From an uncultured bacterium (GTDB lineage: Bacteria > Edwardsbacteria > AC1 > EtOH8), in the NCBI GenBank assembly GCA_963780225.1, contig CAWAAX010000006.1, forward strand, positions 18,136 to 82,135: 64,000 nt of DNA, given 5' to 3'. Both the position numbers and the translations under genes were made by a program. Under the pieces are notes generated by a model. The model was not told the DNA's origin. It was given only the letters and a program-made list of their open reading frames with translations, and ran no database searches. This document shows positions 29,649-60,231 of the stretch, piece after piece (the stretch's first letter is position 1; each line of letters opens with the position of its first letter).

Positions 29649-29651
29649 AAT

Positions 29652-36570: not shown

Positions 36571-36593
36571 GGGTTTGGTTAGAATTCCGCCCC

Positions 36594-37219: not shown

Positions 37220-37223
37220 TTGC

Positions 37224-37374: not shown

Positions 37375-37482
37375 GCCCACCAACCCCCTTGCATTTTCAC
37401 CCATCATTTGCGATAATAACGCAAGCCATAATAGACGCCTTTGGCGTCTATTATGCTTTAACATTAAACCACGGAGAAGGTC

Positions 37483-38300: not shown

Positions 38301-38301
38301 T

Positions 38302-40008: not shown

Positions 40009-40928
40009 AGCAGGGTCAGAACAAGGAAGTGCTGGTGCTGGCCGGGCCGACGGCTGTGGGAAAGACAGCAGTCGGCCTTGTCTTGGCTCAAAGGCTGAAG
40101 GCCCACATCATCTCGGCCGATTCCCGGCAGATATATAAATATTTGGAGATCGGCACCGCCAAGCCCACGGCAGAGGAACTTCAAAAAGCGCCTCATCACA
40201 TGACGGATATCCTGACGCCAGATCTGGCCTACAGCGCCGCAGCCTTTGCCGCCGAAGCCCGGCGGGTGATGGATGAGTTGGATAAAAAGGACCAGGCATA
40301 TATCATAATCGGTGGTTCCGGTCTTTACCTAAAGGCCCTGACCGAAGGACTGGTAGATATTCCTTCGGCCGACCAAAGCCTTCGCCGGGAACTAAAGGAC
40401 TTTTCCCAAACCAAAGGTAATCAGGCATTGCTGCAAAGGCTGGCCGAATGCGACCCGGAGACCGCCCAACGGCTAAAGCTCAACGACGAAGTGCGGATCA
40501 TCAGGGCTTTGGAGGTCTTCATGCTGACCGGAAAACCGTTGAGCCTATGGTTCCGGGAAAAGCGCCAGGGAGACGACAGGAACTATAAGCTGGTAGTGCT
40601 GGACCTGGACCGGCACGCTCTTTATCAAAGGATCGAGTCCCGGGTTGACGTTATGATGTCCATGGGCCTGCTGGATGAAGTGAAAAAGCTTATGGATCTT
40701 GGCTACGGGCCCAGTTCCCCAGGAATGCAGACGGTGGGATATCAGGAACTGATGGCTCATTTGGCGGGGAAAACAGACCTGATGGAGGCAGTCCGTCTGA
40801 TCAAAAGGAATACCAGGCATTATGCCAAACGGCAGCTTACCTGGTTCCGCAAGATGAATTATCAGCAATGGATAAACTGCCGACCAAGTGACAGCCCTGA
40901 GGATATCGCCAATAAATTATCGGTTTAA
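40005..40928 (+). CDS. miaA: tRNA dimethylallyltransferase
   Basis: P-loop 'GPTAVGKT' and 'ISADSRQIYKYLEIGTAKPT'. It is adjacent to mutL, as in many bacteria. Confidence 0.92.
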   Translation: MKQGQNKEVLVLAGPTAVGKTAVGLVLAQRLKAHIISADSRQIYKYLEIGTAKPTAEELQKAPHHMTDILTPDLAYSAAAFAAEARRVMDELDKKDQAYIIIGGSGLYLKALTEGLVDIPSADQSLRRELKDFSQTKGNQALLQRLAECDPETAQRLKLNDEVRIIRALEVFMLTGKPLSLWFREKRQGDDRNYKLVVLDLDRHALYQRIESRVDVMMSMGLLDEVKKLMDLGYGPSSPGMQTVGYQELMAHLAGKTDLMEAVRLIKRNTRHYAKRQLTWFRKMNYQQWINCRPSDSPEDIANKLSV

Positions 40929-41007
40929 CAACCGCCCTCTAACATTATACCGGCCTTGTGATTATTGATATTGACAGGGCCGTTTTTTCGTGTTATTATA
41001 AAAGTCT

Positions 41008-42279
41008 ATGAATATATTGTTGATCGGTTCGGGCGGCCGGGAACACGCCTTGGGTTGGAAGCTGGCCCAAAGCCCTCTGGTTAAAAAAATATACTGCGCT
41101 CCGGGGAATCCCGGGCTGGCGGAGCTGGGTGAATGCATTGATATCAAGGCAAACAACAACGCCGGACTGGCGGATTTTGCCCTGAAGAACAGCATCGACT
41201 TGACTGTGGTCGGCCCGGATGACTGCGCACCGGCAGGGCTAACCGATACTTTTAAAAATTACGGATTGAAGATATTCGGACCCAGCAAAAAAGCCTCGCA
41301 AATAGAGGCTTCCAAGGCCTTCTCCAAGGACCTGATGCGGAAGGCCGGTATCCCCACCGCCGATTATGCTGTTTTTGATGATCACAAAAAGGCCCTGGAT
41401 CATATTAACGGCCAAAAATATCCTCTGGTCATCAAGGCCAGCGGCCTGGCTTTGGGCAAGGGTGTGATCATCTGCCAAAATGAAGAACAGGCCAAGGCCG
41501 CTTTAAATTCGGCCATGGTGGAAAAAGCATTCGGGGCTTCAGGAAACCAAATCATAATTGAAGAATTTCTGGAAGGGCAGGAGATCTCCATTCATGCTTT
41601 TTGCGATGGCGAGAGGGCCGCTTTGTTCCCTGCTTCCCAGGACCATAAACAAGCCTTTGACGGCGACCTGGGTCCCAACACCGGCGGCATGGGAAGCTAT
41701 GCTCCGGTGGGTTGGGTGACCCCGGAGATGATGGCTGAGATAGAAAAGACCGTCGTGATGCCGGCCTTAAAAGCGTTATCCGATCTTGGCGCGCCATTCC
41801 AGGGCTGTCTGTTTCCGGGTTTGATCCGCACCTCTCAGGGCTTTAAGGTGCTGGAGTTCAACGCCCGTTTCGGCGATCCCGAGACCCAGAGCTATGTGCG
41901 TCTTCTGGAATCGGATCTGGTTGAGATACTGTTGTCCTGCGCCCAAGGCCGCCTAAAGCCTGATCAGATCAAATGGTCATCGCAAAGCGCCGTTTGCATC
42001 GTGGCTGCTTCCGGCGGATACCCCGGTAACTACCAGAAAGGCTTTGATATTTCCGGGATTGATGCGGTTCAAGAAAACCCCGGCATTAAAATATTTCAGG
42101 CCGGAACGGCTTTCTGCGATAACCGGCTGGTCACTGCCGGGGGCCGGGTGTTGGGGGTGACCTCAGTTGGTTCAAGCCTGAAAGAAGCGGTAGATACGGC
42201 ATACCGGGCTGTTTCTGAAATAAGTTTTGCAGGCATGCAATACCGCCGGGACATAGGCGCCAAAGGGCTGAAAAAATAG
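41008..42279 (+). CDS. purD: Phosphoribosylamine--glycine ligase
   Basis: 'ILLIGSGGREHALGWKL' plus an ATP-grasp domain. Confidence 0.93.
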   Translation: MNILLIGSGGREHALGWKLAQSPLVKKIYCAPGNPGLAELGECIDIKANNNAGLADFALKNSIDLTVVGPDDCAPAGLTDTFKNYGLKIFGPSKKASQIEASKAFSKDLMRKAGIPTADYAVFDDHKKALDHINGQKYPLVIKASGLALGKGVIICQNEEQAKAALNSAMVEKAFGASGNQIIIEEFLEGQEISIHAFCDGERAALFPASQDHKQAFDGDLGPNTGGMGSYAPVGWVTPEMMAEIEKTVVMPALKALSDLGAPFQGCLFPGLIRTSQGFKVLEFNARFGDPETQSYVRLLESDLVEILLSCAQGRLKPDQIKWSSQSAVCIVAASGGYPGNYQKGFDISGIDAVQENPGIKIFQAGTAFCDNRLVTAGGRVLGVTSVGSSLKEAVDTAYRAVSEISFAGMQYRRDIGAKGLKK

Positions 42280-42378
42280 GGCATTGGAAAGCAATCAGAA
42301 AACATTTTCTAAATAATGGCAGTTCACGTAACAGCAAAATATCCGGCAGGCGATTATCATTATTATCTGAGGGATAAA

Positions 42379-43107
42379 ATGAAAAAGTTGATTCTACTCC
42401 CCGCCGTCCTGGCTTTGCTTTGCTTGAACATCGGAGCCCAAACCAAAACCCTGGTGGTGGCCACCGGAGATTATCCTCCGTTTGAGTTCAAGGATGAAAA
42501 GGGGAACCTGACCGGTTACGATATTGAACTGGGACAGGAGATAGCCCGCCGGATGGAGGCGAAAATAAAATGGATCCAGCTGGATTTGAACAAACTGCTG
42601 CCGGCCCTGGATGCCGGCCAGGCTGATCTGGTGATCGCGGTACTGCATTCCACCGAGGAGCGCCGTCAGCATTATGCCTTAAGCCGGAACTATGTAAACT
42701 CGGGCCTGGTAATGGTGGTAAAAAAAGACGGAAAGAATATTAATTCCTTGAAACAGCTGAAAGGCTGCCGGGTGGCGGTCAAGGAATTGGGTACCGGAGA
42801 AAAATATGCCCAGGAGAACGCAGCTCAGCTGGGTTTTGAATATAAAAAATACGCCACCACCGATCAAAGTTTTTCTGCCTTAGGGCGGGGAGAAGTGGAT
42901 GCGGTTTTCAACGATTATTTATCTTCGCGATTCTTCCTTAAACAAAATCCTGGTTACAAGATACCCATTGTGCCCTTTGCTCCCTGTGGAATGGCGGTGG
43001 CCGCCGCCAAGGACAGGAGAACATTAATTCTGCAAGTCAACCAGATTTTGGAAGAGTTGGAACGCTCGGGTTTCCTGAAGCAATTATATCAAAAGTGGCT
43101 TTTATAA
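42379..43107 (+). CDS. Amino-acid ABC transporter substrate-binding protein (family 3 SBP)
   Basis: It has a signal peptide 'MKKLILLPAVLALLCL' and 'GYDIELGQEIARRM'. Confidence 0.7.
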   Translation: MKKLILLPAVLALLCLNIGAQTKTLVVATGDYPPFEFKDEKGNLTGYDIELGQEIARRMEAKIKWIQLDLNKLLPALDAGQADLVIAVLHSTEERRQHYALSRNYVNSGLVMVVKKDGKNINSLKQLKGCRVAVKELGTGEKYAQENAAQLGFEYKKYATTDQSFSALGRGEVDAVFNDYLSSRFFLKQNPGYKIPIVPFAPCGMAVAAAKDRRTLILQVNQILEELERSGFLKQLYQKWLL

Positions 43108-43116
43108 TTTTAAAGT

Positions 43117-46100
43117 ATGAAGCTATCTCTTAAAATAGGCCTGATCACTGCCGCAGTAGCAGGCAGCATTGCCGTAAGTGTTTCGCTTAACCATAGTTTT
43201 TGGGAAGGGAAGGCCTGGCGAACAGAACTCAGATCCCATGCTGCCACCATGGCTGACATGCTGGCTTTTACCGTTCAGGAGTCGGTGTTGAAGAACGATT
43301 TTTCGGCACTGGAACAGAATATTATAAAGTTTAGCCAGCGTCTGGAAATAGCCTATGCCGTAGTCTACGACAATTCTGCCACTCCTTTGGCCGCCACCGG
43401 CGGCACGGCAAGCCGGCAGGCCATCGAACTGTATCAGGAAAATCCCAAAAAACACAAAAGAGATGTTCACAAACATGTAATTGACGGCCAGGATATTTAT
43501 GAAATGCTGATCCCGGTCAGCGTGGATGGCCGGGATTGGGGAATGTTACAGGTGGGGTTTTATGAAAATAAAATACTGGCTATTTATCACCGCACCAATA
43601 TTTTCAATTACCTGATCCTGCTGTTGGGCCTGGGGATAAGCATGGCCGCAGGTTGGTTGGTGGCGCGGTATCTGGGGGAACCAATTGAGGCCCTGATGGA
43701 AGGCGCCGATCAATTGGTTAAAAGTAACTATGACCACCGGATAAATATAAAAAGAAAAGACGAACTGGGCCGGTTGGTATCGGCCTTCAATCAGATGGCC
43801 GGTACCATCCGGCAGGATATGGTGGAGCTGGGATCCAGAAACCTTCAGCTGCTGAAGGCACAGGAAAGACAATTATGGCTGGCCCGTATCGCCGAGCAGG
43901 TAGGCGAAGGGGTGGCGGTTACTGACCTGGAAGGAATGGTAACCTTTGTAAACCATTCCTGGGCCGATATGCATGGTTATGCTCCGGAACAGTTGCTGGG
44001 CAAGCATTTCAGCATCTTTCACTCCCATGCCCAGCTGGCGCGGGAGGTGCTGCCCTTCAACCAAAAAGTGATGGGGCAGGGCCTTAACGCCGGGATCGTC
44101 GGTCATATTAAAAAAGACCGCACGGTATTCTACACCGAAACGACCATGACCCTTCTAAAAAATTACGATGGGGAAGCAGTGGGCTTTATCGGAGTGGCGC
44201 ATGATATCACCGACCAAAAGAAAGCCCAGGAAGATCTGAAAAAAGAGCGGGATGTCATCAAAAGCATATTTGCCGCCACCCCCGACGCCGTCATCATCAC
44301 CGATCTCAACGGTAATTTTATTGAAGCTAACGACAAGGCCATAGAACTGCTGGAACTTAATTCCCGGGATGAGTTGCTGGGCAAGAATTTTTCCGCCTTT
44401 ATCGCTCCTGATGACCGGAGCCTGGCCCTTCACAATTTCCAAAAGACCCTGGATTATGGGGGAGTCAGTAATATTCAGTTGGATATAGTAACCACCAAAA
44501 ACGGACAGTTCCCGTTGGAATATTCAACCAGATTGCTATACAGCAGTGAAGGCCGGCCCACTAATCTCGTGGCAGTGGGGCGCAACATTGCTTTGCGCAA
44601 AAAATCCGAACTGGCCCTGGCCGACAGCGAACAACGCTATCGCACTCTGGCGGAATCTTCGCCTGATATCATATTTGTGGCGGATCGGGACGGAACAATC
44701 AAATATGCCAATAATAAAGCCACTTCCATCGCCGGTTTGGCCGAGGGCCAGGCCAATGGCCGCAATATATCCGAATTCTTTGAGCAAGGCATGAACGACA
44801 AGCAGAAGGAACAACTGCTTGGTGTATTCACCAGCGGCAGTACCGCCCACTATGAACTACCGACGCCCATTGGCGGACGGGAGCTGTGGCTGGAAACCTG
44901 GATGGTTCCTCTGACCGATCAGACAGGCTCAGTAACAGAGGTAATGGTATTATGCCGCGATTTAACCTCCCGCAAGCGGATGGAAGAAAAGTTATTAATT
45001 TCCGAGCAAAAATACCGGGAACTGGCCGATAGCTTGCCCCAGACGGTATTTGGATGCGACGGTAAAGGGCGTATTACCTATTTTAATAAAATCGGATATC
45101 AACAATCCGGTTATGAACCCGCTGACATAGAAAATGGTCTTAACATAACTGATCTGTTGATCCCGGAGGACAGACAAAGAGCCCTTCAGAATATTGACGG
45201 GAGGATGCAAGGCCGGCCGGGCCAAAATCAGGAATACCAAGCTTTAAGAAAAGACGGAACAACGTTTCCTATAAACATTTACACCAGTCTGGTTATTGAA
45301 GATGGTTTGATCAGTGGGTTAAGGGGCGTGATAGTTGATGTCAGCGAAATCAAGAAGAGCGAGCAGGTCCTTAAGGAAAGTGAAGCCCGGTTCAGATCAT
45401 TGGCCGAAGCCAGTCCTTCCGGGATATTTGCCTACCGGGAAAAATTCATTTATGCCAATCCTGCCTGCCAGACGCTTACCGGGTATAGCCCGGACGAATT
45501 GTTTAAAATGAATTTTTGGGAATTGATCCATCCCGACCATCGGGATATGGTAAAACAAAGGGGATTGGCCCGGCAGAGGGGAGATAACGTCCCATCCAAT
45601 TATGAGTTCAAAATGATCCGCAAGGATGGCCAGGTGCGCTGGGTTGATTTTTCCGGAACCATGACCCAGTTTGACGGCCAGCTATCAGGTTTGGGAATGA
45701 CCCTGGATATAACCGAACGCAAAGGAATAGAAGAAATCCTTCAGGCTTCCGAAGCCCAATACCGCACTACCATAGATTCCATCGGCGATGCCATCCATGT
45801 GGTGGACCGCGAGCTGAACATTCTGCTGGTCAACGCCGTCTTTAAAGAGTGGTGTCATCGTCTCGGCCTGATCAAAGAACCATCCGGTTGCAATGTGTAT
45901 GAGGTGTGTCCATTTTTAAGTCCTCAGGTGCGGCAGGAATATCAGAGTGTTTTTGAAACCGGACAGCCGTCAATCACTCAGGACGAAAATATCATTTCGG
46001 GGAAATCCCTGTTTACTGAGACCAGGAAAATACCCATTTTGGAAGGCGGCCGGACCACCAAGGTCATCACGGTGATTCGGGACATCACCGAGGAAAAGGA

Positions 46101-47979
46101 AGCAGAGCGGAAACTATCGGAATCGGAATTGAAATACCAACAGGTGCTGGAAGGTGTAGCCGAGGGCATTTATCGCACCACGCCGGAGGGAAAAATACTG
46201 CTGGCCAACCAGGCTATAGTAAAAATGTTGGGATATACAACTTTGGAAGAATTAATGAACCGGGATATCAGAAGAGAAGGGTATATCGATCCCGTTTCTC
46301 ACCTCAACTTTATAGAAGAGATGAATAAAAAAGGCCAGGTAAAGAATTGGGTTAGCGAATGGAGAAAGAAAGACGGCTCAATCATGGTGGCCAGGGAAAA
46401 TGCCCATGCGGTCAAGGATCAATCGGGTAAAATCGTTTACTATGAGGGGACGGTTGAGGATATAACGGAGCAGAAAATGGCTGAGCGGAAACTGGCTGAA
46501 TCGGAGCGCAAATACAGCCAGATATTTGAAGACATCGTGGAAGGCATTTACCGGACCACACCCGAGGGGCATGTATTGCTGGCCAACCCGGCCTTGCTGA
46601 GAATGCTGGGCTTTGAAAGCCATGAACAGTTGGTAAAGTTAAATCTGAACAAAGCAGGCTATGTAGATAGCAGCGCCCGCCGCAGGTTCAAGGAACAGAT
46701 GGAACGGGACGGTCAGGTGTTAGGTTTTGAAGCCAAATGGAAGCGTAGCGACGGTAAAATAATAGTAATCAGCGAAAACGCCCGGACGGTCAAGGACGAT
46801 CAGGGCAAGGTGCTTTATTACGAGGGCACTATTGAGGACATAACCGAAAAACAAAAAGCCGAAGAAGATCTTTTAAACGAAAAAAATAAGCTGTCCGACC
46901 TGTTCCGGGTCAGCCTGCAGGTGGCCCGGGCAGGCAACATCCAGAAAAAACTGGACCTGACCATGGATGGCATATACGGTACTGGGTTGTTTGCCAGGGC
47001 GGTGCTGGTGCTCAAAAACGAAGAGGGATGCAACAGCCATATCGCTCATTTTGGCATGACCTCCAAGGAGGTTTCAGCGATTCTAAAGTCCGGTCCGGCT
47101 CAGGCCGAAAAACTGGAAAAAATATTCAATAAAAAATTCCGCTACAGTAATTCGTATTTTATTCCCCATGATTCTCCGGGGATTGATTTTTCCATTAAAC
47201 TGATAAACAAACAATATCAGCCCATCGGAGACTGGCATCCCGAAGATGCTCTGCTGGTGCCCTTGGTGGTCAAGGACAAGCATATCGGCTATTTGACGGT
47301 GGATGAGCCGATCGACGGAAAGATCCCCAGCCTGGAGATAGTCCGGTTGTTGGAGCTGTTCTCCTATCAGGCGGCGGTGGCCATAGATAATATCAGGCTC
47401 TATAGTGATCTGGAGCGGAGTTATTACAGCACCCTTAAGGCTTTTGTAGCGGCCATGGACGCCAAAGATCCATACACCAAGGGCCATTCCGAGAATGTCC
47501 GTTACCATGCATTAACTATCGCCCGCCAGCTTAAACTTCCTGAGGAGCAGGTAAAACTGATAGATTTCAGTTCGTTACTGCACGACATAGGCAAGTTGGC
47601 CATTCGGGACGAGATATTGACTAAACCCAGCCTGCTGTCCGACCACGAATACCAGGAGATAAAACTGCATCCGGTGATCGGCAGCCGTCTGGTGGCCGAG
47701 GTGGAATCATTGATAAAGGTAGCTCCCATAATCCACAGCCATCACGAGCATTACGACGGGTCGGGATATCCCCAGGGCATCAAGGGAGACCAGATTCCCC
47801 TGGAAGCCAGGATCATTGCGGTAGCAGATGCCTTTGAAGCCATGACCTCTGACCGGCCCTACCGTAAGGCCTTCGACTTGAAGGTGGCCATCAAGCGGCT
47901 GCAGGATGCGGCCGGAACCCAGTTTGATAATGAGATCGTAAAAGTATTCATTAAACTTCACCAGGAAACCCATGGATAG
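43117..47979 (+). CDS. Giant sensor c-di-GMP phosphodiesterase: periplasmic sensor-TM-HAMP, about nine PAS/PAC domains, a GAF domain, and a C-terminal HD-GYP domain
   Basis: There are repeated PAS cores. The C-terminal 'HDIGKLAIRDEIL...HHEHYDGSGYPQG' is the HD-GYP signature. Confidence 0.8.
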   Translation: MKLSLKIGLITAAVAGSIAVSVSLNHSFWEGKAWRTELRSHAATMADMLAFTVQESVLKNDFSALEQNIIKFSQRLEIAYAVVYDNSATPLAATGGTASRQAIELYQENPKKHKRDVHKHVIDGQDIYEMLIPVSVDGRDWGMLQVGFYENKILAIYHRTNIFNYLILLLGLGISMAAGWLVARYLGEPIEALMEGADQLVKSNYDHRINIKRKDELGRLVSAFNQMAGTIRQDMVELGSRNLQLLKAQERQLWLARIAEQVGEGVAVTDLEGMVTFVNHSWADMHGYAPEQLLGKHFSIFHSHAQLAREVLPFNQKVMGQGLNAGIVGHIKKDRTVFYTETTMTLLKNYDGEAVGFIGVAHDITDQKKAQEDLKKERDVIKSIFAATPDAVIITDLNGNFIEANDKAIELLELNSRDELLGKNFSAFIAPDDRSLALHNFQKTLDYGGVSNIQLDIVTTKNGQFPLEYSTRLLYSSEGRPTNLVAVGRNIALRKKSELALADSEQRYRTLAESSPDIIFVADRDGTIKYANNKATSIAGLAEGQANGRNISEFFEQGMNDKQKEQLLGVFTSGSTAHYELPTPIGGRELWLETWMVPLTDQTGSVTEVMVLCRDLTSRKRMEEKLLISEQKYRELADSLPQTVFGCDGKGRITYFNKIGYQQSGYEPADIENGLNITDLLIPEDRQRALQNIDGRMQGRPGQNQEYQALRKDGTTFPINIYTSLVIEDGLISGLRGVIVDVSEIKKSEQVLKESEARFRSLAEASPSGIFAYREKFIYANPACQTLTGYSPDELFKMNFWELIHPDHRDMVKQRGLARQRGDNVPSNYEFKMIRKDGQVRWVDFSGTMTQFDGQLSGLGMTLDITERKGIEEILQASEAQYRTTIDSIGDAIHVVDRELNILLVNAVFKEWCHRLGLIKEPSGCNVYEVCPFLSPQVRQEYQSVFETGQPSITQDENIISGKSLFTETRKIPILEGGRTTKVITVIRDITEEKEAERKLSESELKYQQVLEGVAEGIYRTTPEGKILLANQAIVKMLGYTTLEELMNRDIRREGYIDPVSHLNFIEEMNKKGQVKNWVSEWRKKDGSIMVARENAHAVKDQSGKIVYYEGTVEDITEQKMAERKLAESERKYSQIFEDIVEGIYRTTPEGHVLLANPALLRMLGFESHEQLVKLNLNKAGYVDSSARRRFKEQMERDGQVLGFEAKWKRSDGKIIVISENARTVKDDQGKVLYYEGTIEDITEKQKAEEDLLNEKNKLSDLFRVSLQVARAGNIQKKLDLTMDGIYGTGLFARAVLVLKNEEGCNSHIAHFGMTSKEVSAILKSGPAQAEKLEKIFNKKFRYSNSYFIPHDSPGIDFSIKLINKQYQPIGDWHPEDALLVPLVVKDKHIGYLTVDEPIDGKIPSLEIVRLLELFSYQAAVAIDNIRLYSDLERSYYSTLKAFVAAMDAKDPYTKGHSENVRYHALTIARQLKLPEEQVKLIDFSSLLHDIGKLAIRDEILTKPSLLSDHEYQEIKLHPVIGSRLVAEVESLIKVAPIIHSHHEHYDGSGYPQGIKGDQIPLEARIIAVADAFEAMTSDRPYRKAFDLKVAIKRLQDAAGTQFDNEIVKVFIKLHQETHG

Positions 47980-50900
47980 AAGTAAAAATAACAAAACCGA
48001 CCCCGTTCTAAGGACCGGGCGGGTTACAAAAGCCAGATCTGTAAAAACGCCGGACCGGGGGAGTTCTTCCGGGGCCCAGAGCCTGGAAAAAAGGCTGGAG
48101 GAGATCTCGGTGCTAAGCCAGATTGCCCAATCCATGGCCCGGGTAATGAATCTGGAAGAACTTTGGCCCCGGCTACACCGCGAAGTGAGCCGTTTGCTCG
48201 ATGCCCGGAATTTTTACGTGGCTTTGTGGCACCACCGGCAGGGAAAGGCAGTAGAATTCATTTATGAGATCAAAGACGGAAAACGTCTGCCAAAATCCCA
48301 AAAATCACGGGCCCGCGGACTGACCGAACTGGTGCTGGAATCGGGTAAACCACTGCTGTTAAAACATGAAGAAATAAAAAAAAGAGGCCGTCCTCTAAAA
48401 AACGGCGACCAGCCGGCTCTTTCCTGGTTGGGAGTTCCCATTCGGATCAGGGAGCATACCATGGGAATGATAGCTGTTCAGAATTACCAGCAGACCGGAC
48501 TCTACAACCTGAACCATCAGGAATTGTTAGTATCCATTGCCGGTTATGCGGCAGTAGCTTTGGAAAATTCCCGGCTGCATACGGCCGCCCTGCAAAAAGC
48601 CAAAGAAGCCGAAGCTCTGCATCAGTTGAGCGAAGCCGCAGTAACCGATGCCAATCTGGACGAACTGCTTCAGAGGATACCTTTGTTGATCAAAGAAACC
48701 TTTGGCTATTTGACTTGCGCCATCCTGCTTTCCGATCAGGAAGACAAATACTTGTATCTTAAGGCCGCAGTGGGATATCGGGCCAAAGTAATAAGGGATA
48801 CCCGCATCGCCATCGGTCGAGAAGGAATAACCGGCTGGGTAGCATCCCAGGGAAAAACCATGTATGTTCCTGATGTCAGCAAAGAGAAACGTTATTTGGA
48901 AGTAGAGAGCAACTGCCGTTCGGAAGCAGCGTTGCCTCTCAAATTCCGGGATAAGGTCATAGGGGTATTGGATATTGAGAGTTCCCGATTGGATGGATTC
49001 AGCCCCTATGACATCCGGCTTTTGGAAAATTTTGCTAACCAGGCAGCGGCAGTCATCCAGAAAATACGGCTGGAACAACTGGCCCATCAGAAAATCAAAG
49101 AGCTCGCTACTCTATCCGATATCTTTCAGGGATTTACGGTCAGTATGGGCCTGGGTGCGTTGACCGGAGAACTGACGCGGAAAATAGGCCAGGCTATGGA
49201 AAGCGATAAATGCCTGATCGCCTTGTATGATGCCGTAAGCGGTCAGTTATCTGGACTGCCCCAGGGCTTCATGACCAAGAAACTTTCTGATAAACAAAGA
49301 AAAATATTCAGAGATAAGGACGAATTAAGCCGGGCTATGCGCTTTTATTTAGATCAGGGCGGGGCGGCCACCATGGTCTTTAAGACGGGACAGCCTTATT
49401 TTACCAACCAAGTCCGAACTGATTCCAAGATCATTCAAAAACTGGCCAAAACTTATGAGATCAATAAACTCCTGATACTACCGCTGAAATCCCGGGATAA
49501 AATGCTGGGATTGATATATGTAGCCGACAAAGAAGGTGGCCGGGATTTTGACCGCAATGACGCAAAGATGGGAGAGGTTTTAGCCAGCCAAGCTGCATTA
49601 CTTTTGGACAACGCCATGCTGTACCAGAAAATGGATATGGGTTTAAAGCAGCTAACTACCCTTTACCAGATGAGTCAGGCGGTGATCAATGCTACCGATG
49701 AGAACGAAGTGATGATGCTGAGTCTCAAAATCATCGGTGACATTATCCCCGCCGATACTATTACCCTGATGTTGATCGATCCGTCCACCGGCGATTTGGT
49801 AATTAAAGCTGCCCGGGGACTTTCGGATGAAATTGAAAAACAGCCTAGGCTCAAATCGGGCCAGGGATTGGCCGGCTGGGTAACCGAGCATATGGAGCCG
49901 GTGCTGACTGCCGACCTGGGCAGCGATCCTAGGTTTGTTTTACTGCCCCAGAAAGAGAATCTGGGCGCCTCCATCCTGGTTCCGTTGCAGGCCAAGGCCC
50001 AGCTGCTGGGAGTTTTGAACATCAATAATTTCCGGGGTAATCCCCAAGAATTTACTTTGGAACAGTTGCAGTTGGCCCAGATCATGGCAAGCAGTATTGC
50101 CATGGCACTGGAAAGGACCGAGCTGGTGATAGCCTTGGACAGCCGGGCCTCGGTTCAGAAATCACTGCTGGAAACCAGCCGCCTTTTGCTGGGTTCTCTT
50201 CAAATCGAAGATGTGCTTCCCAAGATCTCGCAGGAGATCGAGCGCTTGATTCCATTTGAGAGGCTGGCCATCTATAAGGTGGATTGGGCAACCAAAAACC
50301 TTTCACCGATGATGGCGTTGGGCCCATATCAGGATGAGATAATGGCCGATACTTCGTTTTCCATGGATACAAGCATAGTTGGGAATATTGCTCAAACCGG
50401 CCGGCCGGAGATCATCCCCGATGCTCTCCGCGATGTCCGGACCAGACATATAGCCGGAACCGACGACGACTCGGAATCCTTATTGGTGGCTCCTCTTTTG
50501 GTAAATGGACGCAGTGAGGCAATGTTGTTAATCGGGCGCCCGGTGGGTCTTGGTTTTACTTCCCGGGAATTGGAGATAGCTTCGCTGTTCGCCAACCAAG
50601 CGGCGGTAGCCTGGAAGAATGCCAGCATGTTCGGGGAAATTAACCGCAACCAGGGGGAACTTTCCGAAGCCAATAGCCGGCTTAATTTGGCGCTAAAACG
50701 ACAGATTGAGGTGAATACCGAGCTTTCCACCATGCAGTATCTTTCCAGCACCATCCTTTCGTCACTAAAACTGGAAGAGATTCTTTCGGTAATAGTGGAG
50801 GGCATCAGGACCAGCCTTGGTTTTGACCGGGTATTGATCAGCAGCGCCGAGTCTGATGGCCTTAATCTGATCCACCAGGCGGCCGCAGGAATTCCTCCGG

Positions 50901-52753
50901 AAGAGTTCCAGGAAATGCAGCAAAACAAATTACCCTTGTCCGACGTTATGCCATTAATGCGGTCAGATTTCCGGATCAGCAATTCCTTCTTAGCCCCGGC
51001 TCCGGGCCAGGAACAGGTAAAACCCAAGTCTGGAGATCATCCGAAAGATTCCGGCCTTTGGCAAGAGGGCAGCCGGATTTTAACCCCGCTCTACGCCAAG
51101 AACCGCCGGATGCTGGCGTTGATTCAGATTGAGAAACCGTCGGCTGGCAGGGTTCCCGATAAAAAGAAAATCCGGTCATTGGAAGCTTTTGCCAACACCG
51201 CAGTGCTGGCCATCGAAAACGCCACTCTGTATCTGGATGCCCAGAATCGAATTACCGAGCTTTCGGTGCTTTATGAGATCGGCACCATCATCTCCTCGGT
51301 GCTGGAAAAGCACCAGCTGCTGGAAAGCGTGGTCAACCTGATTAGAGAAAAACTTCATTACCTGAAAGTGGCCATTTTTGAAGTGGAGCCCATCACCGGC
51401 AGCCTGTTCGTTGGCGGACAGAGCGGATACGAGCAAGAGTTGGAGCAGGTCCATTTTACGGTGGGCGGCAACAGCGTGGTGGGGTGGGTGGCGGAAAAAG
51501 GGCAGCCCCTGATAATTCCGGATGTTCGTCAGGAACCGCTCTATGTGGTCGGTGATCAACGGGTGCTTTCGGAGATAGCCATTCCCATCAAACGCGAGGA
51601 GCAGGTCCTGGGGGTGATGAGCATCGAGGACGATAAGTTGGACGCTTTCGACCAATCGGATGCTCAGCTTTTATCCACTTTGGCCAACCAGGTGGCAGTG
51701 GCCATGGATAACGCCCGGTTGTATGGCCAGGCACAACACCTCTATCAGGAAGCCCAGCGCAACGTTCGCGACCTTTCGGCCCTGCATAGCGTGGGCACCA
51801 CAGTCAGCTCCACCCTGCAACTGCAGGATCTGCTGCAGCAGGTTTGCAGCATTCTTAAAGACACTTTCGGTTACGCCAAAATATCTATTCTGCTGACCGA
51901 TTTCCTGCGGGATGAACTGGAACTGATGGTCAGCCTGGGGTATCCAGATAGCGTCAAGGAGACCGGCCGGAGGGTGAAGATAGGCAGCGAAGGTATCACC
52001 GGTAAAGCCGGTCTGACCGGAGAAGCAATAATCGTCAACGATGTCAGCAAGGAACCGTCTTATATCTGTATAGACCAATGCACAAGATCGGAGATGGCGG
52101 TTCCATTAAAACTCAAAGGCCGGATCATTGGTGTGATCAACGTAGAGAGTGATGCCATTGGGGATTTTGACCGGATAGACATGAATCTGTTGAACACTTT
52201 GGCCACCCAAATATCGGTGGCGGTGGAAAACGCCAGACTGTACCAGGAAACCGAGCAGCTGGCGGTAACCGATGGCCTGACCGGAGTGAACAATCATCGT
52301 TACTTCCAAAGCTTTTTTGAGCGGGAGCTCAACCGGGCCAAACGTTACAATCATCCGTTGGCTTTGATTATGCTGGATATCGACCACTTCAAAAAATTCA
52401 ACGACAAATTCGGCCATCCGGTGGGAGACCTGGTGCTTAAAACAGTGACCGAGATACTCAAACAGCAGGCCCGGGAGGTGGATCTGGTGGCCCGTTATGG
52501 GGGTGAGGAGTTTATGTTGGTGCTTCCCGAAACCGGGAAAAAAGAAGCGGTGATGCTGGCCGAACGGATCAGGCTGGCGGTTAAAAAATATCCACTGACG
52601 GATGCTCAGAACAAGCCGCTGCCCAATATCACGGTTAGCCTAGGAGTCTCCAGTTATCCGGAGAACGGCTCGGAGAAGGAGGAGATGATTGACTATGTGG
52701 ACAAATGTCTTTATAAGGCCAAAGCCGGCGGCCGCGATCTGGTAAAGCATTAG
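47972..52753 (+). CDS. Giant sensor diguanylate cyclase: about eight to nine tandem GAF domains and a C-terminal GGDEF domain
   Basis: C-terminal 'GLTGVNNHRYF...LIMLDIDHFKKFND..GH..GD..L...RYGGEEFMLVLPET' is the GGDEF signature. It overlaps the upstream gene by 8 bp. Confidence 0.8.
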   Translation: MDRSKNNKTDPVLRTGRVTKARSVKTPDRGSSSGAQSLEKRLEEISVLSQIAQSMARVMNLEELWPRLHREVSRLLDARNFYVALWHHRQGKAVEFIYEIKDGKRLPKSQKSRARGLTELVLESGKPLLLKHEEIKKRGRPLKNGDQPALSWLGVPIRIREHTMGMIAVQNYQQTGLYNLNHQELLVSIAGYAAVALENSRLHTAALQKAKEAEALHQLSEAAVTDANLDELLQRIPLLIKETFGYLTCAILLSDQEDKYLYLKAAVGYRAKVIRDTRIAIGREGITGWVASQGKTMYVPDVSKEKRYLEVESNCRSEAALPLKFRDKVIGVLDIESSRLDGFSPYDIRLLENFANQAAAVIQKIRLEQLAHQKIKELATLSDIFQGFTVSMGLGALTGELTRKIGQAMESDKCLIALYDAVSGQLSGLPQGFMTKKLSDKQRKIFRDKDELSRAMRFYLDQGGAATMVFKTGQPYFTNQVRTDSKIIQKLAKTYEINKLLILPLKSRDKMLGLIYVADKEGGRDFDRNDAKMGEVLASQAALLLDNAMLYQKMDMGLKQLTTLYQMSQAVINATDENEVMMLSLKIIGDIIPADTITLMLIDPSTGDLVIKAARGLSDEIEKQPRLKSGQGLAGWVTEHMEPVLTADLGSDPRFVLLPQKENLGASILVPLQAKAQLLGVLNINNFRGNPQEFTLEQLQLAQIMASSIAMALERTELVIALDSRASVQKSLLETSRLLLGSLQIEDVLPKISQEIERLIPFERLAIYKVDWATKNLSPMMALGPYQDEIMADTSFSMDTSIVGNIAQTGRPEIIPDALRDVRTRHIAGTDDDSESLLVAPLLVNGRSEAMLLIGRPVGLGFTSRELEIASLFANQAAVAWKNASMFGEINRNQGELSEANSRLNLALKRQIEVNTELSTMQYLSSTILSSLKLEEILSVIVEGIRTSLGFDRVLISSAESDGLNLIHQAAAGIPPEEFQEMQQNKLPLSDVMPLMRSDFRISNSFLAPAPGQEQVKPKSGDHPKDSGLWQEGSRILTPLYAKNRRMLALIQIEKPSAGRVPDKKKIRSLEAFANTAVLAIENATLYLDAQNRITELSVLYEIGTIISSVLEKHQLLESVVNLIREKLHYLKVAIFEVEPITGSLFVGGQSGYEQELEQVHFTVGGNSVVGWVAEKGQPLIIPDVRQEPLYVVGDQRVLSEIAIPIKREEQVLGVMSIEDDKLDAFDQSDAQLLSTLANQVAVAMDNARLYGQAQHLYQEAQRNVRDLSALHSVGTTVSSTLQLQDLLQQVCSILKDTFGYAKISILLTDFLRDELELMVSLGYPDSVKETGRRVKIGSEGITGKAGLTGEAIIVNDVSKEPSYICIDQCTRSEMAVPLKLKGRIIGVINVESDAIGDFDRIDMNLLNTLATQISVAVENARLYQETEQLAVTDGLTGVNNHRYFQSFFERELNRAKRYNHPLALIMLDIDHFKKFNDKFGHPVGDLVLKTVTEILKQQAREVDLVARYGGEEFMLVLPETGKKEAVMLAERIRLAVKKYPLTDAQNKPLPNITVSLGVSSYPENGSEKEEMIDYVDKCLYKAKAGGRDLVKH

Positions 52754-53047
52754 ACAGCAATGGGAACTATTATATCCGCCGGCTCCGTCGTTCATAGCCG
52801 CCTGTAATTAGTGCTTACTATGGCGCCGGACGATTCCCGTAGATTTTAATCATGCTTCATTTTTCATTAAAATCATGAGATGTCAGCACCATCAGGGGGC
52901 AGACGAAATCGAAACCAAAATAATGGAATGCAGCCAGTTCTCCGAGGGAACAGGATACATATTTGAATTAGCGGTTCCCGGTCAAGAGCTGGCACACAAA
53001 TTATAGGTTCCCTTGGATGCGATATTTAAAAATAAGGATATAACTCA

Positions 53048-54319
53048 ATGGCTTCGTTCATCAAGCCTCATTCCCGCTGGTCTCAGGTGTGGCGGGCGTA
53101 TCTTTTTATAGGGGCCTTGCTGCTGGTGGCGGTATCGCTGGTCTACACGGTGGGGCTGATCAAAAGGCTGGAATCCGAGCCCCGGATCATGTCCCGGGTA
53201 TTTGCCCGGTTCTGCATGACCGCTGCCCTGCCTGCGCCAGCCGGAGAATCGCCCGAGACCGGTATAATATTTGAAGAAGTCATCCAGAACATCAATTTCC
53301 CGGTGGTGGTAACCGACCGCCAGGGCCTGCCCATCGCCTGGCGGGGGATTGATGTCAAAGGAACGGAGTTTGACCAGCAGGTCATTCCCCTTGAAGTGGC
53401 CGAACGCTGGGAGAAACTGACGCCCGAAGAGCCGTTCTATCAACTAAAAACGGCCATCGGAGAACTGGATCACCAGAACCAGCCGATCACCATGACCCTG
53501 GGGCAGGACACCAGCAATGTGGTCACCGTCCATTACGGCCAGCCAAGCGTGTTACGGGAACTGCGGTTCATCCCCATCATCCAGTTAGTGTTGGTGGCCC
53601 TTTTTGTCTGGATCGGTTTCATAGGCTTCCGTACCATCAAGATCAACGAAGAGAGGGCGGTGTGGGTGGGCCTGGCCAAGGAAGCGGCCCATCAACTGGG
53701 CACGCCCATCTCCTCGCTTATGGGGTGGCTGACCCTGCTCAAAGACGGAGGACATCCGCCAACCGATGTGGTACCCGAGATGGAAAAGGATCTGGCCCAC
53801 CTTAACCGGGTACTGGCCCGTTTCAACCAGATCGGCTCCACTCCCAAACTGCAGACGGTGGAAGTCACCAAGTTGACCACCGAAGCGGTGGATTATTTCC
53901 GGCGCCGGGTGGCCAACATGGGCAAGGATATTTCATTTGAGGAAGATTATCAGCAGATCTGTGAAGTAGCTTTAAACGCTGAGCTTTTCTTGTGGGCGGT
54001 GGAAAACCTGATCAAGAATGCCATCGATGCCATTGATAGTCCGGGCGGCCTGATCAAGATCAAGGTCAGCCGCAACGGCCCAAAACTGGAGATCATAGTG
54101 GAGGACAATGGCCGGGGGATCAATCCCAAGAACCAACCCAAAATATTCCGGCCGGGGTTCACCACCAAGTCGGTGGGCTGGGGGCTGGGCCTTTCCCTGG
54201 TCAAAAGGATCATCGAGGATTACCACGGGGGAAGGATCAAACTGCTGTTCAGCCGGCCCGGTATCGGCACTGCTTTTATCATAAATCTGCCCCTGCCTTC
54301 CAAATCAAAATCACTTTAA
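53048..54319 (+). CDS. Sensor histidine kinase with two TM helices and a periplasmic loop
   Basis: HisKA 'AHQLGTPISSL' and HATPase 'IVEDNGRGI...GWGLGLSLVKRI'. Confidence 0.8.
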   Translation: MASFIKPHSRWSQVWRAYLFIGALLLVAVSLVYTVGLIKRLESEPRIMSRVFARFCMTAALPAPAGESPETGIIFEEVIQNINFPVVVTDRQGLPIAWRGIDVKGTEFDQQVIPLEVAERWEKLTPEEPFYQLKTAIGELDHQNQPITMTLGQDTSNVVTVHYGQPSVLRELRFIPIIQLVLVALFVWIGFIGFRTIKINEERAVWVGLAKEAAHQLGTPISSLMGWLTLLKDGGHPPTDVVPEMEKDLAHLNRVLARFNQIGSTPKLQTVEVTKLTTEAVDYFRRRVANMGKDISFEEDYQQICEVALNAELFLWAVENLIKNAIDAIDSPGGLIKIKVSRNGPKLEIIVEDNGRGINPKNQPKIFRPGFTTKSVGWGLGLSLVKRIIEDYHGGRIKLLFSRPGIGTAFIINLPLPSKSKSL

Positions 54320-54327
54320 GGACAATA

Positions 54328-55887
54328 GTGGAAAGACCATATAAAATACTTTGGGTGGACGATGAAATTGAACTGTTGAAGTCACAGATCCTCCTGCTTC
54401 AGAACAAGGGCTTTATCGTTATCCCGGCAGCTTCGGGCGAGGAAGCGCTGATCCGGGTCAAGGAAACTGATATTGACCTGGTGCTGCTGGACGAGATGAT
54501 GCCCGGAATGGACGGTTTGGCCACATTAGCCGCCTTACGCCAGCTGAGTCCCGAGCTTCCGGCCATCATGGCCACCAAGAACGAGAAGGAGGAACTGGTG
54601 GAACAGGCCCTGGGCCATAAGATCGATGACTTTTTGCTGAAGCCGTTGAACCCGGCCCAGGTGCTGGCCTCCTGCCGGAGGGTGCTGGAATCCCGCCATT
54701 TGGTGGAGGGGCAGGCCAGCAGGGAATACCTGTCCCAGCTGAACAGCCTGCGGAATTTTGATTATCCCTCGCTGGACTGGCAGGGCTGGTGCCACCACTA
54801 CCAGATGCTGACCGAATGGGACCTGCGGTTGTCAGAACTGCCAGACCAGGGACTGCACCAGAGCCACGAGGACATCACCAGGGAGGCCAACCTGGAATTC
54901 GGGCGGTTCATAGAAGAGAATTACATCCATTGGATGCACGGCGCTTCCCGCCCGATACTTTCCCCCGACCTGGTGGAACGGTACCTGTTGCCGACCCTGA
55001 AAAACAACCAAAAATGCCTGCTGCTGGTGTTGGATTGCATGAGGCTGGATCAGTGGTTGCTGCTGGAGCCCTACTTAAAGGAGTGGTTCGACATCAAGCG
55101 GGAGCATTATTATTCCATCCTGCCCACCGCCACGCCATACTCCCGTAACGCCATCTTCAGCGGTTTGTATCCCTCGCAGCTGGCCCGGAACTATCCCCAG
55201 TACTGGGAAAAAGGAGGTCACGCCGGCGAAGCCAGCCTGAACCGCCACGAGCATCAGCTTTTGGAACTGCAACTGCAACGGCTGAAGGTACCCCATCCGT
55301 CGGATTTCCGCTATTCCAAGATATACAACATTGACGAAGGCCGTGAACTGAAGAAGGTCTTCGGCTCCTGGCAGAATGTTGCGCTGGCGGCGGTAGTGGT
55401 CAACTTCATGGATATCCTGGTCCATTCCCGGGCCGAGTCGCTGGTGCTGCAGGAGATCGCCCCGGACGAAAGGGCCTTCCGTTCCCTGACCCGCACCTGG
55501 TTCGCCAATTCCGACGTGCTGAACATCCTGCAGCAGGCGGCCAGGCAAAAAAGGCAGGTGATAGTGACCACCGACCACGGATCGCTACAGGGCCGGCGGG
55601 CCACCATCATCCAGGCCGGACGGGATACCAGCGCCAACCTTCGCTACAAGTCCGGCACCAACATATCCTGCGATCCCCGTCAGGTGCTGTGGATCAAGAA
55701 ACCGCTGGAATACATGCTGCCAGAGGATTTTACCGGCCTGCAATACCTGGTGGCCAAGGAGGATTATTATCTGGTCTATCCCACCAAGTATGAAGAATAC
55801 CGCAAGCGTTATGAAGGGACCTTTCAGCACGGCGGAATTTCGATGGAGGAGATGATCCTGCCGGTGTGCCGGTTGACCCCGAAGTGA
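54328..55887 (+). CDS. Response regulator with an N-terminal REC domain fused to a C-terminal PglZ-like (alkaline-phosphatase superfamily) domain
   Basis: REC: 'ILWVDDE..LLDEMMPGMDG..KP'. The C-terminal ~370 aa contain 'VIVTTDHGS', the PglZ-type metal-ligand motif, and there is no DNA-binding output domain. Confidence 0.65.
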   Translation: MERPYKILWVDDEIELLKSQILLLQNKGFIVIPAASGEEALIRVKETDIDLVLLDEMMPGMDGLATLAALRQLSPELPAIMATKNEKEELVEQALGHKIDDFLLKPLNPAQVLASCRRVLESRHLVEGQASREYLSQLNSLRNFDYPSLDWQGWCHHYQMLTEWDLRLSELPDQGLHQSHEDITREANLEFGRFIEENYIHWMHGASRPILSPDLVERYLLPTLKNNQKCLLLVLDCMRLDQWLLLEPYLKEWFDIKREHYYSILPTATPYSRNAIFSGLYPSQLARNYPQYWEKGGHAGEASLNRHEHQLLELQLQRLKVPHPSDFRYSKIYNIDEGRELKKVFGSWQNVALAAVVVNFMDILVHSRAESLVLQEIAPDERAFRSLTRTWFANSDVLNILQQAARQKRQVIVTTDHGSLQGRRATIIQAGRDTSANLRYKSGTNISCDPRQVLWIKKPLEYMLPEDFTGLQYLVAKEDYYLVYPTKYEEYRKRYEGTFQHGGISMEEMILPVCRLTPK

Positions 55888-55909
55888 TTTCCGCCGAATA
55901 AATCAAAAA

Positions 55910-56374
55910 ATGCATTTGATACATCTTCCATTCAATATAACCACCAGCTCCGCCGAACAGACCCAATCCTTCGGACATACGCTGGCCTCCCGTTTATTGC
56001 CCGGGGATGTGATCTGCCTGTGGGGCGACCTGGGCACCGGCAAGACCACCCTGACCCAGGGCATCTGCCGGGGTCTGCAGTCAAAGGAGATGGCGGTCAG
56101 TCCCAGTTACGGTCTGATCCACGAGTACCAGGGGATCTGCGATATCTATCACCTGGACCTGTACCGGCTGGAAAACTCAGCCCAGGCCGAAGAGATCGGC
56201 GTCACGGAATATCTTTACGGCCGGGGGATCTCCATCCTGGAATGGCCGGAGCGGATCCGCGATATCCTGCCGGAAAGCCGGCTGGATATTCATCTGACCA
56301 GGCTGGACCAGCAGACCCGGAAAATTGAGATCAAAACATCAGGAAATAACTGGAATGACAGGTTTAATAATTGA
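55910..56374 (+). CDS. tsaE: tRNA threonylcarbamoyladenosine biosynthesis ATPase TsaE
   Basis: 'GDVICLWGDLGTGKTTL'. Confidence 0.9.
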   Translation: MHLIHLPFNITTSSAEQTQSFGHTLASRLLPGDVICLWGDLGTGKTTLTQGICRGLQSKEMAVSPSYGLIHEYQGICDIYHLDLYRLENSAQAEEIGVTEYLYGRGISILEWPERIRDILPESRLDIHLTRLDQQTRKIEIKTSGNNWNDRFNN

Positions 56375-57035
56375 CACCAGCGGTCCCTGGCTGAACATGG
56401 CCGTATGCCGGGAGGATGATATTTTGGCCTCGGTATCACAGGATGCGGGCAACCAGCAGGCCGAGAGACTTCCTTTTGAACTGGGCAACATCCTGGCCAA
56501 GGCAAAGGTGAAGCTGTCTGAAGCAGACTGGCTGGCGGTAACGGCGGGGCCGGGCTCTTTTACCGGCCTGCGGGTGGGGGTATCATTTGCCCAGGGTCTG
56601 GCCATGGGCTCCGGCATCAGGCTTTTGCCGCTCAACACGCTGGATGCCATGGCCTGTCTGCCGGAGGGTTTTTCCGGAGAATTGTCTCCGATGATGGACG
56701 CCAAAAAGGGACAGGTCTACACGGCCTTATACCGGTCAGAAAACGGGACCAGCCATCCGGTCTCTTCATATCAGGTGCTGGAACCCCAAGCCTGGCTTTC
56801 CCGGCTGGCTCCCCGGACAAAAGTATTCGGCAGCGGAGCTTATGCCTACCGGGAGATGATATCACAGTCATACCCGGAACTGATGATGGATGAAGCATAT
56901 ATCAACGGCCCGGAGATCAGCGGCCTGGTCAGGCTGGCCTTAAAAAACCTCAATCAAAACAAATTTGTACCGGCCGAAGAGCTGGATGCGTTTTACATAC
57001 GCCCCTCTGATGCCGTGGTCAAACTGAATGCCTGA
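56355..57035 (+). CDS. tsaB: tRNA threonylcarbamoyladenosine biosynthesis protein TsaB
   Basis: 'MTGLIIDTS...GPGSFTGLRVGVSFAQGLA'. Confidence 0.88.
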   Translation: MTGLIIDTSGPWLNMAVCREDDILASVSQDAGNQQAERLPFELGNILAKAKVKLSEADWLAVTAGPGSFTGLRVGVSFAQGLAMGSGIRLLPLNTLDAMACLPEGFSGELSPMMDAKKGQVYTALYRSENGTSHPVSSYQVLEPQAWLSRLAPRTKVFGSGAYAYREMISQSYPELMMDEAYINGPEISGLVRLALKNLNQNKFVPAEELDAFYIRPSDAVVKLNA

Positions 57036-59324: not shown

Positions 59325-59328
59325 AGGA

Positions 59329-60210: not shown

Positions 60211-60231
60211 GCATAAATTAAAATCATTGTT

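Follow-up and report, generated by a model that had tools for sequence, protein, structure and literature searches.

Organization and catalytic residues of the gene pair

The 64,000-nucleotide stretch of contig CAWAAX010000006.1 (assembly GCA_963780225.1) analyzed here, hereafter the window, carries on its forward strand two very large genes, A and B, predicted to encode respectively a phosphodiesterase (PDE) degrading cyclic di-GMP (c-di-GMP) and a diguanylate cyclase (DGC) producing it (Table 1). By its named homologues, the window belongs to candidate division TA06. The initial annotation had described them as two giant open reading frames (ORFs) overlapping by 8 bp, and their coordinates and lengths proved exact. 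The junction reads ATGGATAG, with the TAG stop codon of gene A at positions 47977-47979, the ATG of gene B at position 47972 and the motif AGGAA 5 nt upstream of this ATG. An 8-bp overlap is found at the A/B junction in all four TA06 loci compared (L001, L003, L005 and L090), and in Edwardsbacteria loci the two genes overlap by 4 bp or are parted by a 1-nt gap. The domain order first given for A (periplasmic sensor, HAMP, PAS, GAF, HD-GYP) stands, with HAMP, PAS, HD_5/HD and a weak GAF domain recognized by Pfam, the latter with 26.2 bits, below the cut-off of 28.6. Its PAS units, counted before as about nine, are eight by iterated self-profiles, with a period of ~125 amino acids (aa) and starts at residues 256, 381, 507, 632, 758, 881, 1006 and 1132. 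Regarding B, the description as a multi-GAF cyclase is likewise retained, Pfam finding multiple GAF domains followed by a GGDEF domain, and the count of eight to nine GAF units settles at eight by self-profile mapping. Hydropathy predicts two transmembrane (TM) segments in A and none in B.

Table 1. Features of the locus (positions refer to the window, residues to the encoded protein)
Feature	Position	Residues (aa)	Strand	Description
Binding protein gene	42379..43107		+	SBP_bac_3 amino-acid-type binding protein; 242 aa from the MKKLILL signal-peptide start
Gene A	43117..47979		+	1620 aa; TM–periplasmic sensor–TM–HAMP–8 PAS–GAF-like–HD-GYP
TM1 of A		7-25		hydropathy
Periplasmic sensor domain of A	43192..43608	26-164 (~139 aa)	+	weak CHASE8-like match
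TM2 of A		165-183		hydropathy
HAMP of A		181-233		Pfam
PAS array of A	43858..46863	248-1249	+	8 units; self-profile mapping
PAS6 of A	45733..46107	873-997	+	
PAS7 of A	46108-46485		+	
PAS8 of A	46486-46863		+	
GAF-like domain of A		1250-1430		
HD-GYP of A	47407..47979	1431-1620	+	alignment to 4MCW and 5Z7C, orthologue alignment
Gene B	47972..52753		+	1593 aa; soluble; 8 GAF (aa 40-1425) then GGDEF (aa 1426-1593)
GAF3 of B	49127..49651	386-560	+	
GGDEF of B	52247..52753		+	alignment to PleD 1W25/2WB4, E=1.7e-37
Histidine kinase gene	53048..54319		+	sensor histidine kinase, 423 aa, PorY-like position; Pfam HATPase_c, H-box, 2 TM (20-38 and 168-186)
PorX gene	54328..55887		+	PorX-family response regulator, REC + PglZ, 519 aa; NCBIfam NF052313, 7PV7

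The C-terminus of A matches PmGH of Persephonella marina (4MCW, E=5e-36) and V-cGAP3 of V. cholerae (5Z7C, E=4e-43), with which it shares the same C-terminal GAF-like and HD-GYP module. The metal ligands (H, HD, H, HH and D) are identical to those of 4MCW (PmGH H189, H221/D222, H250, H276/H277 and D305) and conserved in 11 orthologues, the extended motif HHExxDGxGYP is present as HHEHYDGSGYP, and the RxY[K/R] specificity motif reads RPYR in A and in all orthologues; the ligand check proposed in the initial annotation thus found all ligands and the extended motif intact. At the position of the third-metal Glu of PmGH (E185), A has a Tyr (DPYTKGH) which is kept in all TA06 and Edwardsbacteria orthologues and is a Phe in L009. 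As Glu185 separates trinuclear from binuclear HD-GYPs (10.1101/2021.11.05.467447), this Tyr assigns A to the binuclear subclass and not to the trinuclear, PmGH-like one. Tyr-type HD-GYPs generally fail to perform the second step, from pGpG to GMP, PA4781 and VCA0681 being exceptions (10.1101/2021.11.05.467447), and the likely degradation product of A, as judged from its sequence, is pGpG. PmGH is moreover a 369-aa protein with a KPG motif, whereas A has KPS and places eight PAS units, a HAMP domain, two TM segments and a periplasmic domain ahead of the module, reaching 1620 aa.

In B, all residues tested by reference to PleD are identical, namely the equivalents of D327 (Mg ligand), K332, N335, D344, R366, K442, R446 and R390 together with the GGEEF motif, and the RxxD inhibitory site (I-site) is present as REVD, five residues before GGEEF (REVDLVARYGGEEF in B, RAIDLPCRYGGEEF in PleD). 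With this residue set entirely kept, B has the features of a canonical, product-inhibitable and GTP-specific cyclase, and the active-site and I-site residues singled out for verification are all in place. B thus has in common with PleD/WspR-type cyclases the active site, the Mg and phosphate ligands, the guanine-reading Asn and Asp and the primary I-site; their input comes from REC domains, whereas that of B, a soluble protein of 1593 aa, consists of eight tandem GAF domains. The possibility that B is a Hypr-GGDEF, i.e., a cyclic GMP-AMP (cGAMP) synthase, was rejected, the equivalent of PleD D344 being an Asp; cGAMP-making Hypr GGDEFs have a Ser at this position. Degenerate catalytic motifs, raised initially as a sign of receptor or scaffold proteins, occur in neither A nor B.

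Because both active sites are complete and the junction is tight and conserved, an opposing synthesis and degradation pair predicted to be encoded in one transcription unit, as first proposed, appears as the best reading of these genes. In 'Candidatus Edwardsbacteria', orthologues of B are full length (51-53% identity) and the corresponding slot contains PurD, a multi-PAS–GAF–HD-GYP protein of 2475 or 2683 aa, a multi-GAF–GGDEF protein, the histidine kinase, PorX and TsaE. The HD-GYP partner has there roughly 17-20 PAS units, and since this pair also shows tight junctions, the coupled PDE/DGC pair is old and its version in the window modest. The device had been called unusual, which holds in a relative sense only: the PAS units are about twice as numerous in Edwardsbacteria orthologues, and PAS/GAF kinases of 2400-2800 aa are common among the listed matches. 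The pair is real, conserved and assembled from well-known parts; it is not a new kind of system but an unusual variant. In L009 (GCA_040755715.1), the HD-GYP partner has four GAF domains in place of PAS domains; a nucleotidyltransferase/HEPN (toxin-antitoxin-like) pair is inserted there between the HD-GYP and GGDEF genes (4488..5220), breaking the tight junction.

Origin and remodeling of the sensor arrays

The arrays had been proposed to result from internal duplication and extreme amplification of sensor domains, a proposal that the comparison of the units does not support. Sister units share 18-40% identity, except PAS7 and PAS8 (50-51%), and when each unit was compared with 215 unrelated multi-sensor proteins, 6/8 PAS units, 8/8 GAF units and the GAF of A itself proved closer to an outside protein than to any sister. 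PAS1, for instance, has 56% identity to a unit of P0051 versus 28% to its best sister. PAS7 and PAS8 are thus the only mutual nearest relatives, the other 15 units being closer to unrelated proteins, and the alignment of repeats suggested as a check for recent tandem duplication singles out this pair only. At the DNA level, no repeats were found in A and B beyond a 48-nt family (60-75% identity) marking the last helix of each GAF. GAF1-8 of B are one-to-one and collinear with the L006 orthologue (23-63% identity), and collinear with the L008 orthologue after two extra N-terminal GAFs; PAS3, 6, 7 and 8 of A have 51-62% matches in Edwardsbacteria, in a different order.

Selection on the arrays was estimated against L001 from the ratio of nonsynonymous to synonymous substitution rates (dN/dS), which is 0.04-0.16 in the 18 measurable PAS, GAF and catalytic segments (PAS4 and PAS7, with saturated synonymous sites, being left out) and 0.03-0.37 in housekeeping neighbors. 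The catalytic domains have the lowest value of each protein, 0.042 for both, and every PAS/GAF unit measured is under purifying selection. Outside nearest relatives, scarce DNA repeats, collinearity and low dN/dS together indicate that the arrays are of ancient, mosaic origin, built from distinct subfamilies of PAS and GAF domains, and not the product of recent amplification.

Between close relatives, whose corresponding units are ~80% identical, the differences consist of whole units, in register. The PAS order is 1-2-3-4-5-6-7-8 in the window, 1-2-3-X-4-5-6-8 in P0003, P0004 and P0006, 1-2-3'-b-X-4-5-6-7-8 in P0002, 1-2-a-b-X-4-5-6-8 in P0007 and 2-5-7-8 in L090. The 1411-aa orthologues of B (L001 and L003) cleanly lack GAF3, which is present in L005 and L006. 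Entire units have thus been gained, lost or reshuffled in register as the arrays diverged among close relatives, and the most conserved parts among these relatives (81-95% identity) are the N-terminal sensor, HAMP, GAF, HD-GYP and GGDEF domains. The 970-aa protein P0008 was considered as a version devoid of the periplasmic domain and discarded, being a frameshifted gene call with both the N-terminus and the SBP gene described below present. In L090 (GCA_016208585.1; 2817..3768 and 13932..14638), gene A carries a frameshift near residue 112-142 and encodes four PAS units only.

Each protein was initially seen as gated by about nine small-molecule sensors. PAS1 is the only unit resembling cofactor-binding PAS domains, namely the FAD-binding ones of MmoS (3EWK) and NifL (2GJ3), and with this single resemblance the nine-sensor view is unproven. 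PAS6 contains a Cys/His cluster (WCHRLGLIKEPSGCNVYEVCPF) similar to unit X of the orthologues, a Cys-rich PAS-like unit (...GRKCYEYFMDRKEICPACGITK...) found in P0002, P0003, P0004, P0006 and P0007 (aa 624-741 of P0004, L001 11870-12223) and absent from A of the window; unit X and PAS6 may represent a PAS subtype that binds a metal or an Fe-S cluster.

A separate observation concerns synonymous divergence (dS) from L001, which is 0.72-1.9 across A and B (43117..52753) and 0.19-0.64 in the flanks (38302..42279 and 53048..56374; MutL 0.23, MiaA 0.29, TsaE 0.19, PurD 0.56 and PorX 0.57). PAS4 is 60% identical to L001, with dS saturated. Allele exchange or recombination in the two sensor genes may account for this raised dS, as may differences in codon usage.

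Flanking genes

Immediately upstream of A lies a gene missed in the initial annotation, which encodes a solute-binding protein (SBP). Its ORF spans 42316..43107, the start at 42379 being probably the true one as it matches the orthologue length of 242-243 aa, and it ends 10 bp ahead of gene A. The protein has a signal peptide (MKKLILLPAVLALLCLNIGAQ) and matches Pfam SBP_bac_3 with 116 bits versus a cut-off of 26.4; its nearest solved relatives are the Gln/Arg-binding 6H30 (E 2e-42) and AncQR (4ZV1, E 2e-40). The ligand anchors Thr, Arg and Asp are kept, and the STEER and VDAVFND motifs align to AncQR. The gene occupies the same slot before A in L001, L003, L005 and L090, and in the latter ~550 bp with a reverse 96-aa ORF are inserted between the two. 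No ATP-binding cassette (ABC) permease or ATPase gene lies beside it, its neighbors being PurD and gene A, and the same is true of the orthologous loci; an SBP lacking ABC transporter genes is an orphan SBP, consistent with a signaling role. A census of HD-GYP proteins lists 29 fusions of a PBPb (SBP_bac_3-type) domain to HD-GYP, as well as GGDEF among the signaling domains associated with HD-GYP (10.1101/2021.11.05.467447), and the former provide a Rosetta-stone argument for a coupling of the SBP to the HD-GYP of A.

Downstream of B, the two-component system noted initially is indeed found, and its response regulator, then left unnamed, is of the PorX family. It scores 614 bits against the PorX equivalog NF052313 (cut-off 300) and matches P. 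gingivalis PorX (7PV7) over its full length (residues 3-519, E=7e-119). The REC residues D58 (phospho-acceptor), D14, D15, T86 and K108 of PorX are kept as D55, D11, D12, T83 and K105, and T272 and the Zn ligands D239, D361, H365, D415, H416 and H500 of the PglZ domain as T269, D236, D362, H366, D416, H417 and H501, all of these being invariant in the alignment. PorX is a Zn-dependent phosphodiesterase which cleaves pGpG, pApG, pApA and cyclic oligoadenylates, not c-di-GMP, and has been crystallized with pGpG bound (PMC9757075). As in Porphyromonas gingivalis and Flavobacterium johnsoniae (7PV7, 8TED), the regulator is a full-length PorX; however, porX and porY are orphan genes in P. gingivalis, whose genome has no HD-GYP or EAL gene (PMC9757075), whereas in the window the kinase and PorX genes are adjacent to each other and follow the DGC/HD-GYP pair.

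In all TA06 and Edwardsbacteria loci examined, the pair is followed by the kinase and PorX genes, and the complete order SBP–A–B–kinase–PorX recurs in L001, L003, L005 and L090. The spacer between B and the kinase gene (52754..53047) is 294 bp long in the window, 139-141 bp in L001, L003 and L005 and 29-78 bp in Edwardsbacteria; that of the window contains two extra non-coding blocks with respect to its relatives, with no Rfam match. Over the whole window, Rfam returned 0 matches, hence no c-di-GMP riboswitch. To look for support for a link between PorX and c-di-GMP, we scanned 80 of the listed PorX loci (L010-L089), taken from other phyla of the Fibrobacteres–Chlorobi–Bacteroidetes (FCB) group and comprising no TA06 or Edwardsbacteria genomes, by tblastn with the GGDEF and HD-GYP domains of the window within 10 kb (EAL domains were not scanned). 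A GGDEF domain was found within this distance of PorX in 5/80 of these listed loci and an HD-GYP domain in 0/80. A strong GGDEF match came from a single outside locus, L050, which was rejected as a counterpart of the giant pair, the match being a 280-aa GGDEF gene two genes upstream of the kinase. In 65/73 of the listed loci tsaE lies directly 3' of porX on the same strand, which indicates that the position of PorX is ancestral and that the c-di-GMP pair is a clade-specific neighbor. The porX–tsaE linkage spans Ignavibacteria, Zixibacteria, KSB1, Cloacimonadota, Calditrichia, Bacteroidota and others, and is also seen in the window (54328..56374); tsaB is present in 52/80 of the listed PorX loci. 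In L090 a type I restriction-modification HsdM gene follows PorX in place of tsaE. At the beginning of the window (26..2509), an 827-aa protein combines Ig-like domains with a C-terminal domain for sorting to a type IX secretion system (T9SS; Por_Secre_tail, 40.9 bits versus a cut-off of 27), suggesting that the organism has a T9SS; no core T9SS gene lies within the 64-kb window.

A YajQ c-di-GMP receptor gene had also been linked to the pair. The gene is genuine (34076..34570, 188 bits versus a cut-off of 146) and lies 8.5 kb upstream; however, it is part of a FtsK–LolA–YajQ block, and between it and the pair come a restriction-modification island, MutL, MiaA and PurD. In L003, L006 and L008 no YajQ gene lies near the pair, and its proximity in the window is incidental. 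The restriction-modification/Vsr-like island (34930..37658, between yajQ and mutL) comprises a 546-aa N6_N4 methyltransferase fused to a Mrr-like nuclease domain, a DUF559 protein and a 123-aa ORF, and is absent from L001, where two small ORFs take its place. Finally, nearly all confidently annotated genes of the window (1..64000) are on the forward strand and the cumulative GC skew rises steadily to +1.56, consistent with a single replichore and genes strongly co-oriented with replication.

Proposed signaling model, alternatives and implications

The explanation that we consider probable is that of a signaling operon, conserved in the TA06 clade, which sets c-di-GMP through two separately regulated and co-expressed enzymes, a membrane-anchored PDE and a soluble DGC. 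From their spacing and conservation, the SBP gene, A and B would form one transcription unit. The SBP would report an amino-acid-like ligand from outside the cell to A's periplasmic domain, from which the signal would travel via HAMP and then the PAS/GAF rod to gate the HD-GYP domain, which would degrade c-di-GMP, probably to pGpG. B would integrate cytoplasmic cues via its own GAF rod, its activity being capped by product inhibition, and coupled translation would match the amounts of A and B and possibly favor a PDE–DGC (HD-GYP:GGDEF) complex. The output would be a locally buffered c-di-GMP set-point.

Several points weigh against this explanation. The input of the SBP to A is suggested by conserved adjacency and by the PBPb–HD-GYP fusions only, and the Edwardsbacteria orthologues are devoid of SBP, TM segments and HAMP, from which it follows that this input is a TA06 addition and not a core feature. 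The periplasmic domain of A matches Pfam CHASE8 (PF17152) with E=8e-4 and 20 bits, under the cut-off of 27; a homologue search with the N-terminal 240 aa of A returned one partial protein, P0241, annotated as a CHASE sensor (PF17152), and an AlphaFold2 model of residues 1-250, built from six shallow sequences, has a mean confidence (pLDDT) of 41, too poor to classify the domain. A scan for promoters and terminators gave signals at shuffle background, and the limits of the operon are thus drawn from spacing only. In the HD-GYP domain, the KPG motif, which contacts the second guanine, is altered to KPS in TA06 and L009 and to KPD in L006 and L008; the contacts of KPG to the substrate are made via main-chain atoms (10.1101/2021.11.05.467447). 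Many of the PAS and GAF units may be structural, dimerization, transmission or spacer modules instead of sensors. Lastly, unless regulation is reciprocal, the co-expression of opposing enzymes amounts to a futile cycle.

Characterized systems illustrate parts of this scheme. In its logic, the nearest studied analogue of the SBP and A is NspS-MbaA of Vibrio cholerae (PMC8079147, PMC8967002), in which a binding-protein gene also stands beside a membrane-anchored c-di-GMP enzyme with a periplasmic domain and the SBP is a ligand sensor, not a transport component. NspS is however of the polyamine type and MbaA a bifunctional GGDEF-EAL protein, whereas the SBP is here of the amino-acid SBP_bac_3 type and the HD-GYP and GGDEF domains are on separate proteins; likewise, the coupling of NspS to MbaA has been studied, while that of the SBP to A is proposed from gene adjacency and from fusions in other proteins. 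Cooperation between separate HD-GYP and GGDEF proteins is known for RpfG and XC_0249/XC_0420 of Xanthomonas campestris, the contact requiring the GYP motif of RpfG and a DxD motif (PMC3749722), and both motifs are present in the A/B pair. RpfG is a simple REC–HD-GYP response regulator whose gene, unlike A and B, is not translationally coupled to those of its partners.

Among the alternatives, the one that survives best, unlikely though we consider it, extends the pathway to all five genes: the binuclear HD-GYP would stop at pGpG and the PglZ domain of PorX would be a dedicated, phosphorylation-gated step degrading or sensing this pGpG, tying c-di-GMP turnover to PorXY and the T9SS. It finds support in the Tyr-type HD-GYP conserved throughout the clade, such enzymes generally stopping at pGpG, in the selectivity of PorX for pGpG over c-di-GMP (PMC9757075) and in the PorX catalytic residues, all kept here. 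The kinase and PorX genes follow the pair wherever examined in TA06 and Edwardsbacteria, with spacers of 29-78 bp in the latter, synteny in L090 breaks after PorX and not before, and a T9SS-sorted protein is encoded in the window. However, the whole region from PurD to TsaE is syntenic in the clade, so that the adjacency of the pair and PorX carries little weight, and among the listed PorX loci of other FCB phyla the near absence of GGDEF (5/80) and HD-GYP (0/80) domains and the frequent tsaE neighbor (65/73) point to an ancestral position of PorX, with the pair as a clade-specific neighbor. The 294-bp spacer ahead of the kinase gene in the window and the exceptions to the Tyr rule (PA4781 and VCA0681) further count against it.

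Somewhat more doubtful is the idea that A, B or both act mainly as non-catalytic scaffold, receptor or trigger proteins, B binding c-di-GMP at its I-site and the HD-GYP of A working through contacts. RpfG provides a precedent, as it controls motility via GYP-dependent contacts with GGDEF proteins independently of cyclase activity (PMC3749722); B does have an I-site, and sensor rods of such length could be assembly platforms. Yet every tested catalytic residue is intact in A and B, also at ~50-70% identity in Edwardsbacteria, and the catalytic domains are precisely those with the lowest dN/dS (0.042 both). That the PDE targets 3'3'-cGAMP, in place of or beside c-di-GMP, is very improbable: although the best solved match of A is the cGAMP-specific V-cGAP3 (5Z7C, E=4e-43 versus 5e-36 for PmGH), which shares the Tyr and the RPYR motif, and KPG is changed to KPS at the site holding the second base, RxY[K/R] is the c-di-GMP form and not the RxxQ/N cGAMP form (10.1101/2021.11.05.467447), the coupled partner B is a canonical GGDEF protein with the guanine-reading Asp (PleD D344 equivalent), and the window contains no cGAMP synthase gene.

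Read as an antagonistic PDE/DGC pair, A and B belong to well-known families whose basic biochemistry should hold no surprise, and both the sister clade and the PAS/GAF kinases include larger examples. As a natural split HD-GYP/GGDEF pair encoded by overlapping genes in two candidate phyla, they nonetheless offer a clean system to study the reciprocal control of opposing c-di-GMP enzymes. A is in addition an HD-GYP protein with an apparent extracellular input via an orphan SBP, and the HD-GYP census knows of no characterized member of the family whose sensor is extracytoplasmic (10.1101/2021.11.05.467447). The whole-unit differences between PAS and GAF arrays under purifying selection likewise amount to a natural experiment on signal transmission along long PAS/GAF rods. 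Finally, the only well-defined small substrates of PorX are linear dinucleotides such as pGpG, and the presence of an HD-GYP of the pGpG-producing type beside it suggests a testable role for PorX, for which the comparative support is weak. If the five genes did form one pathway, this would be the first physiological context for the orphan dinucleotide phosphodiesterase activity of PorX and a complete, self-contained c-di-GMP cycle whose turnover would be linked to T9SS control in FCB-group bacteria.

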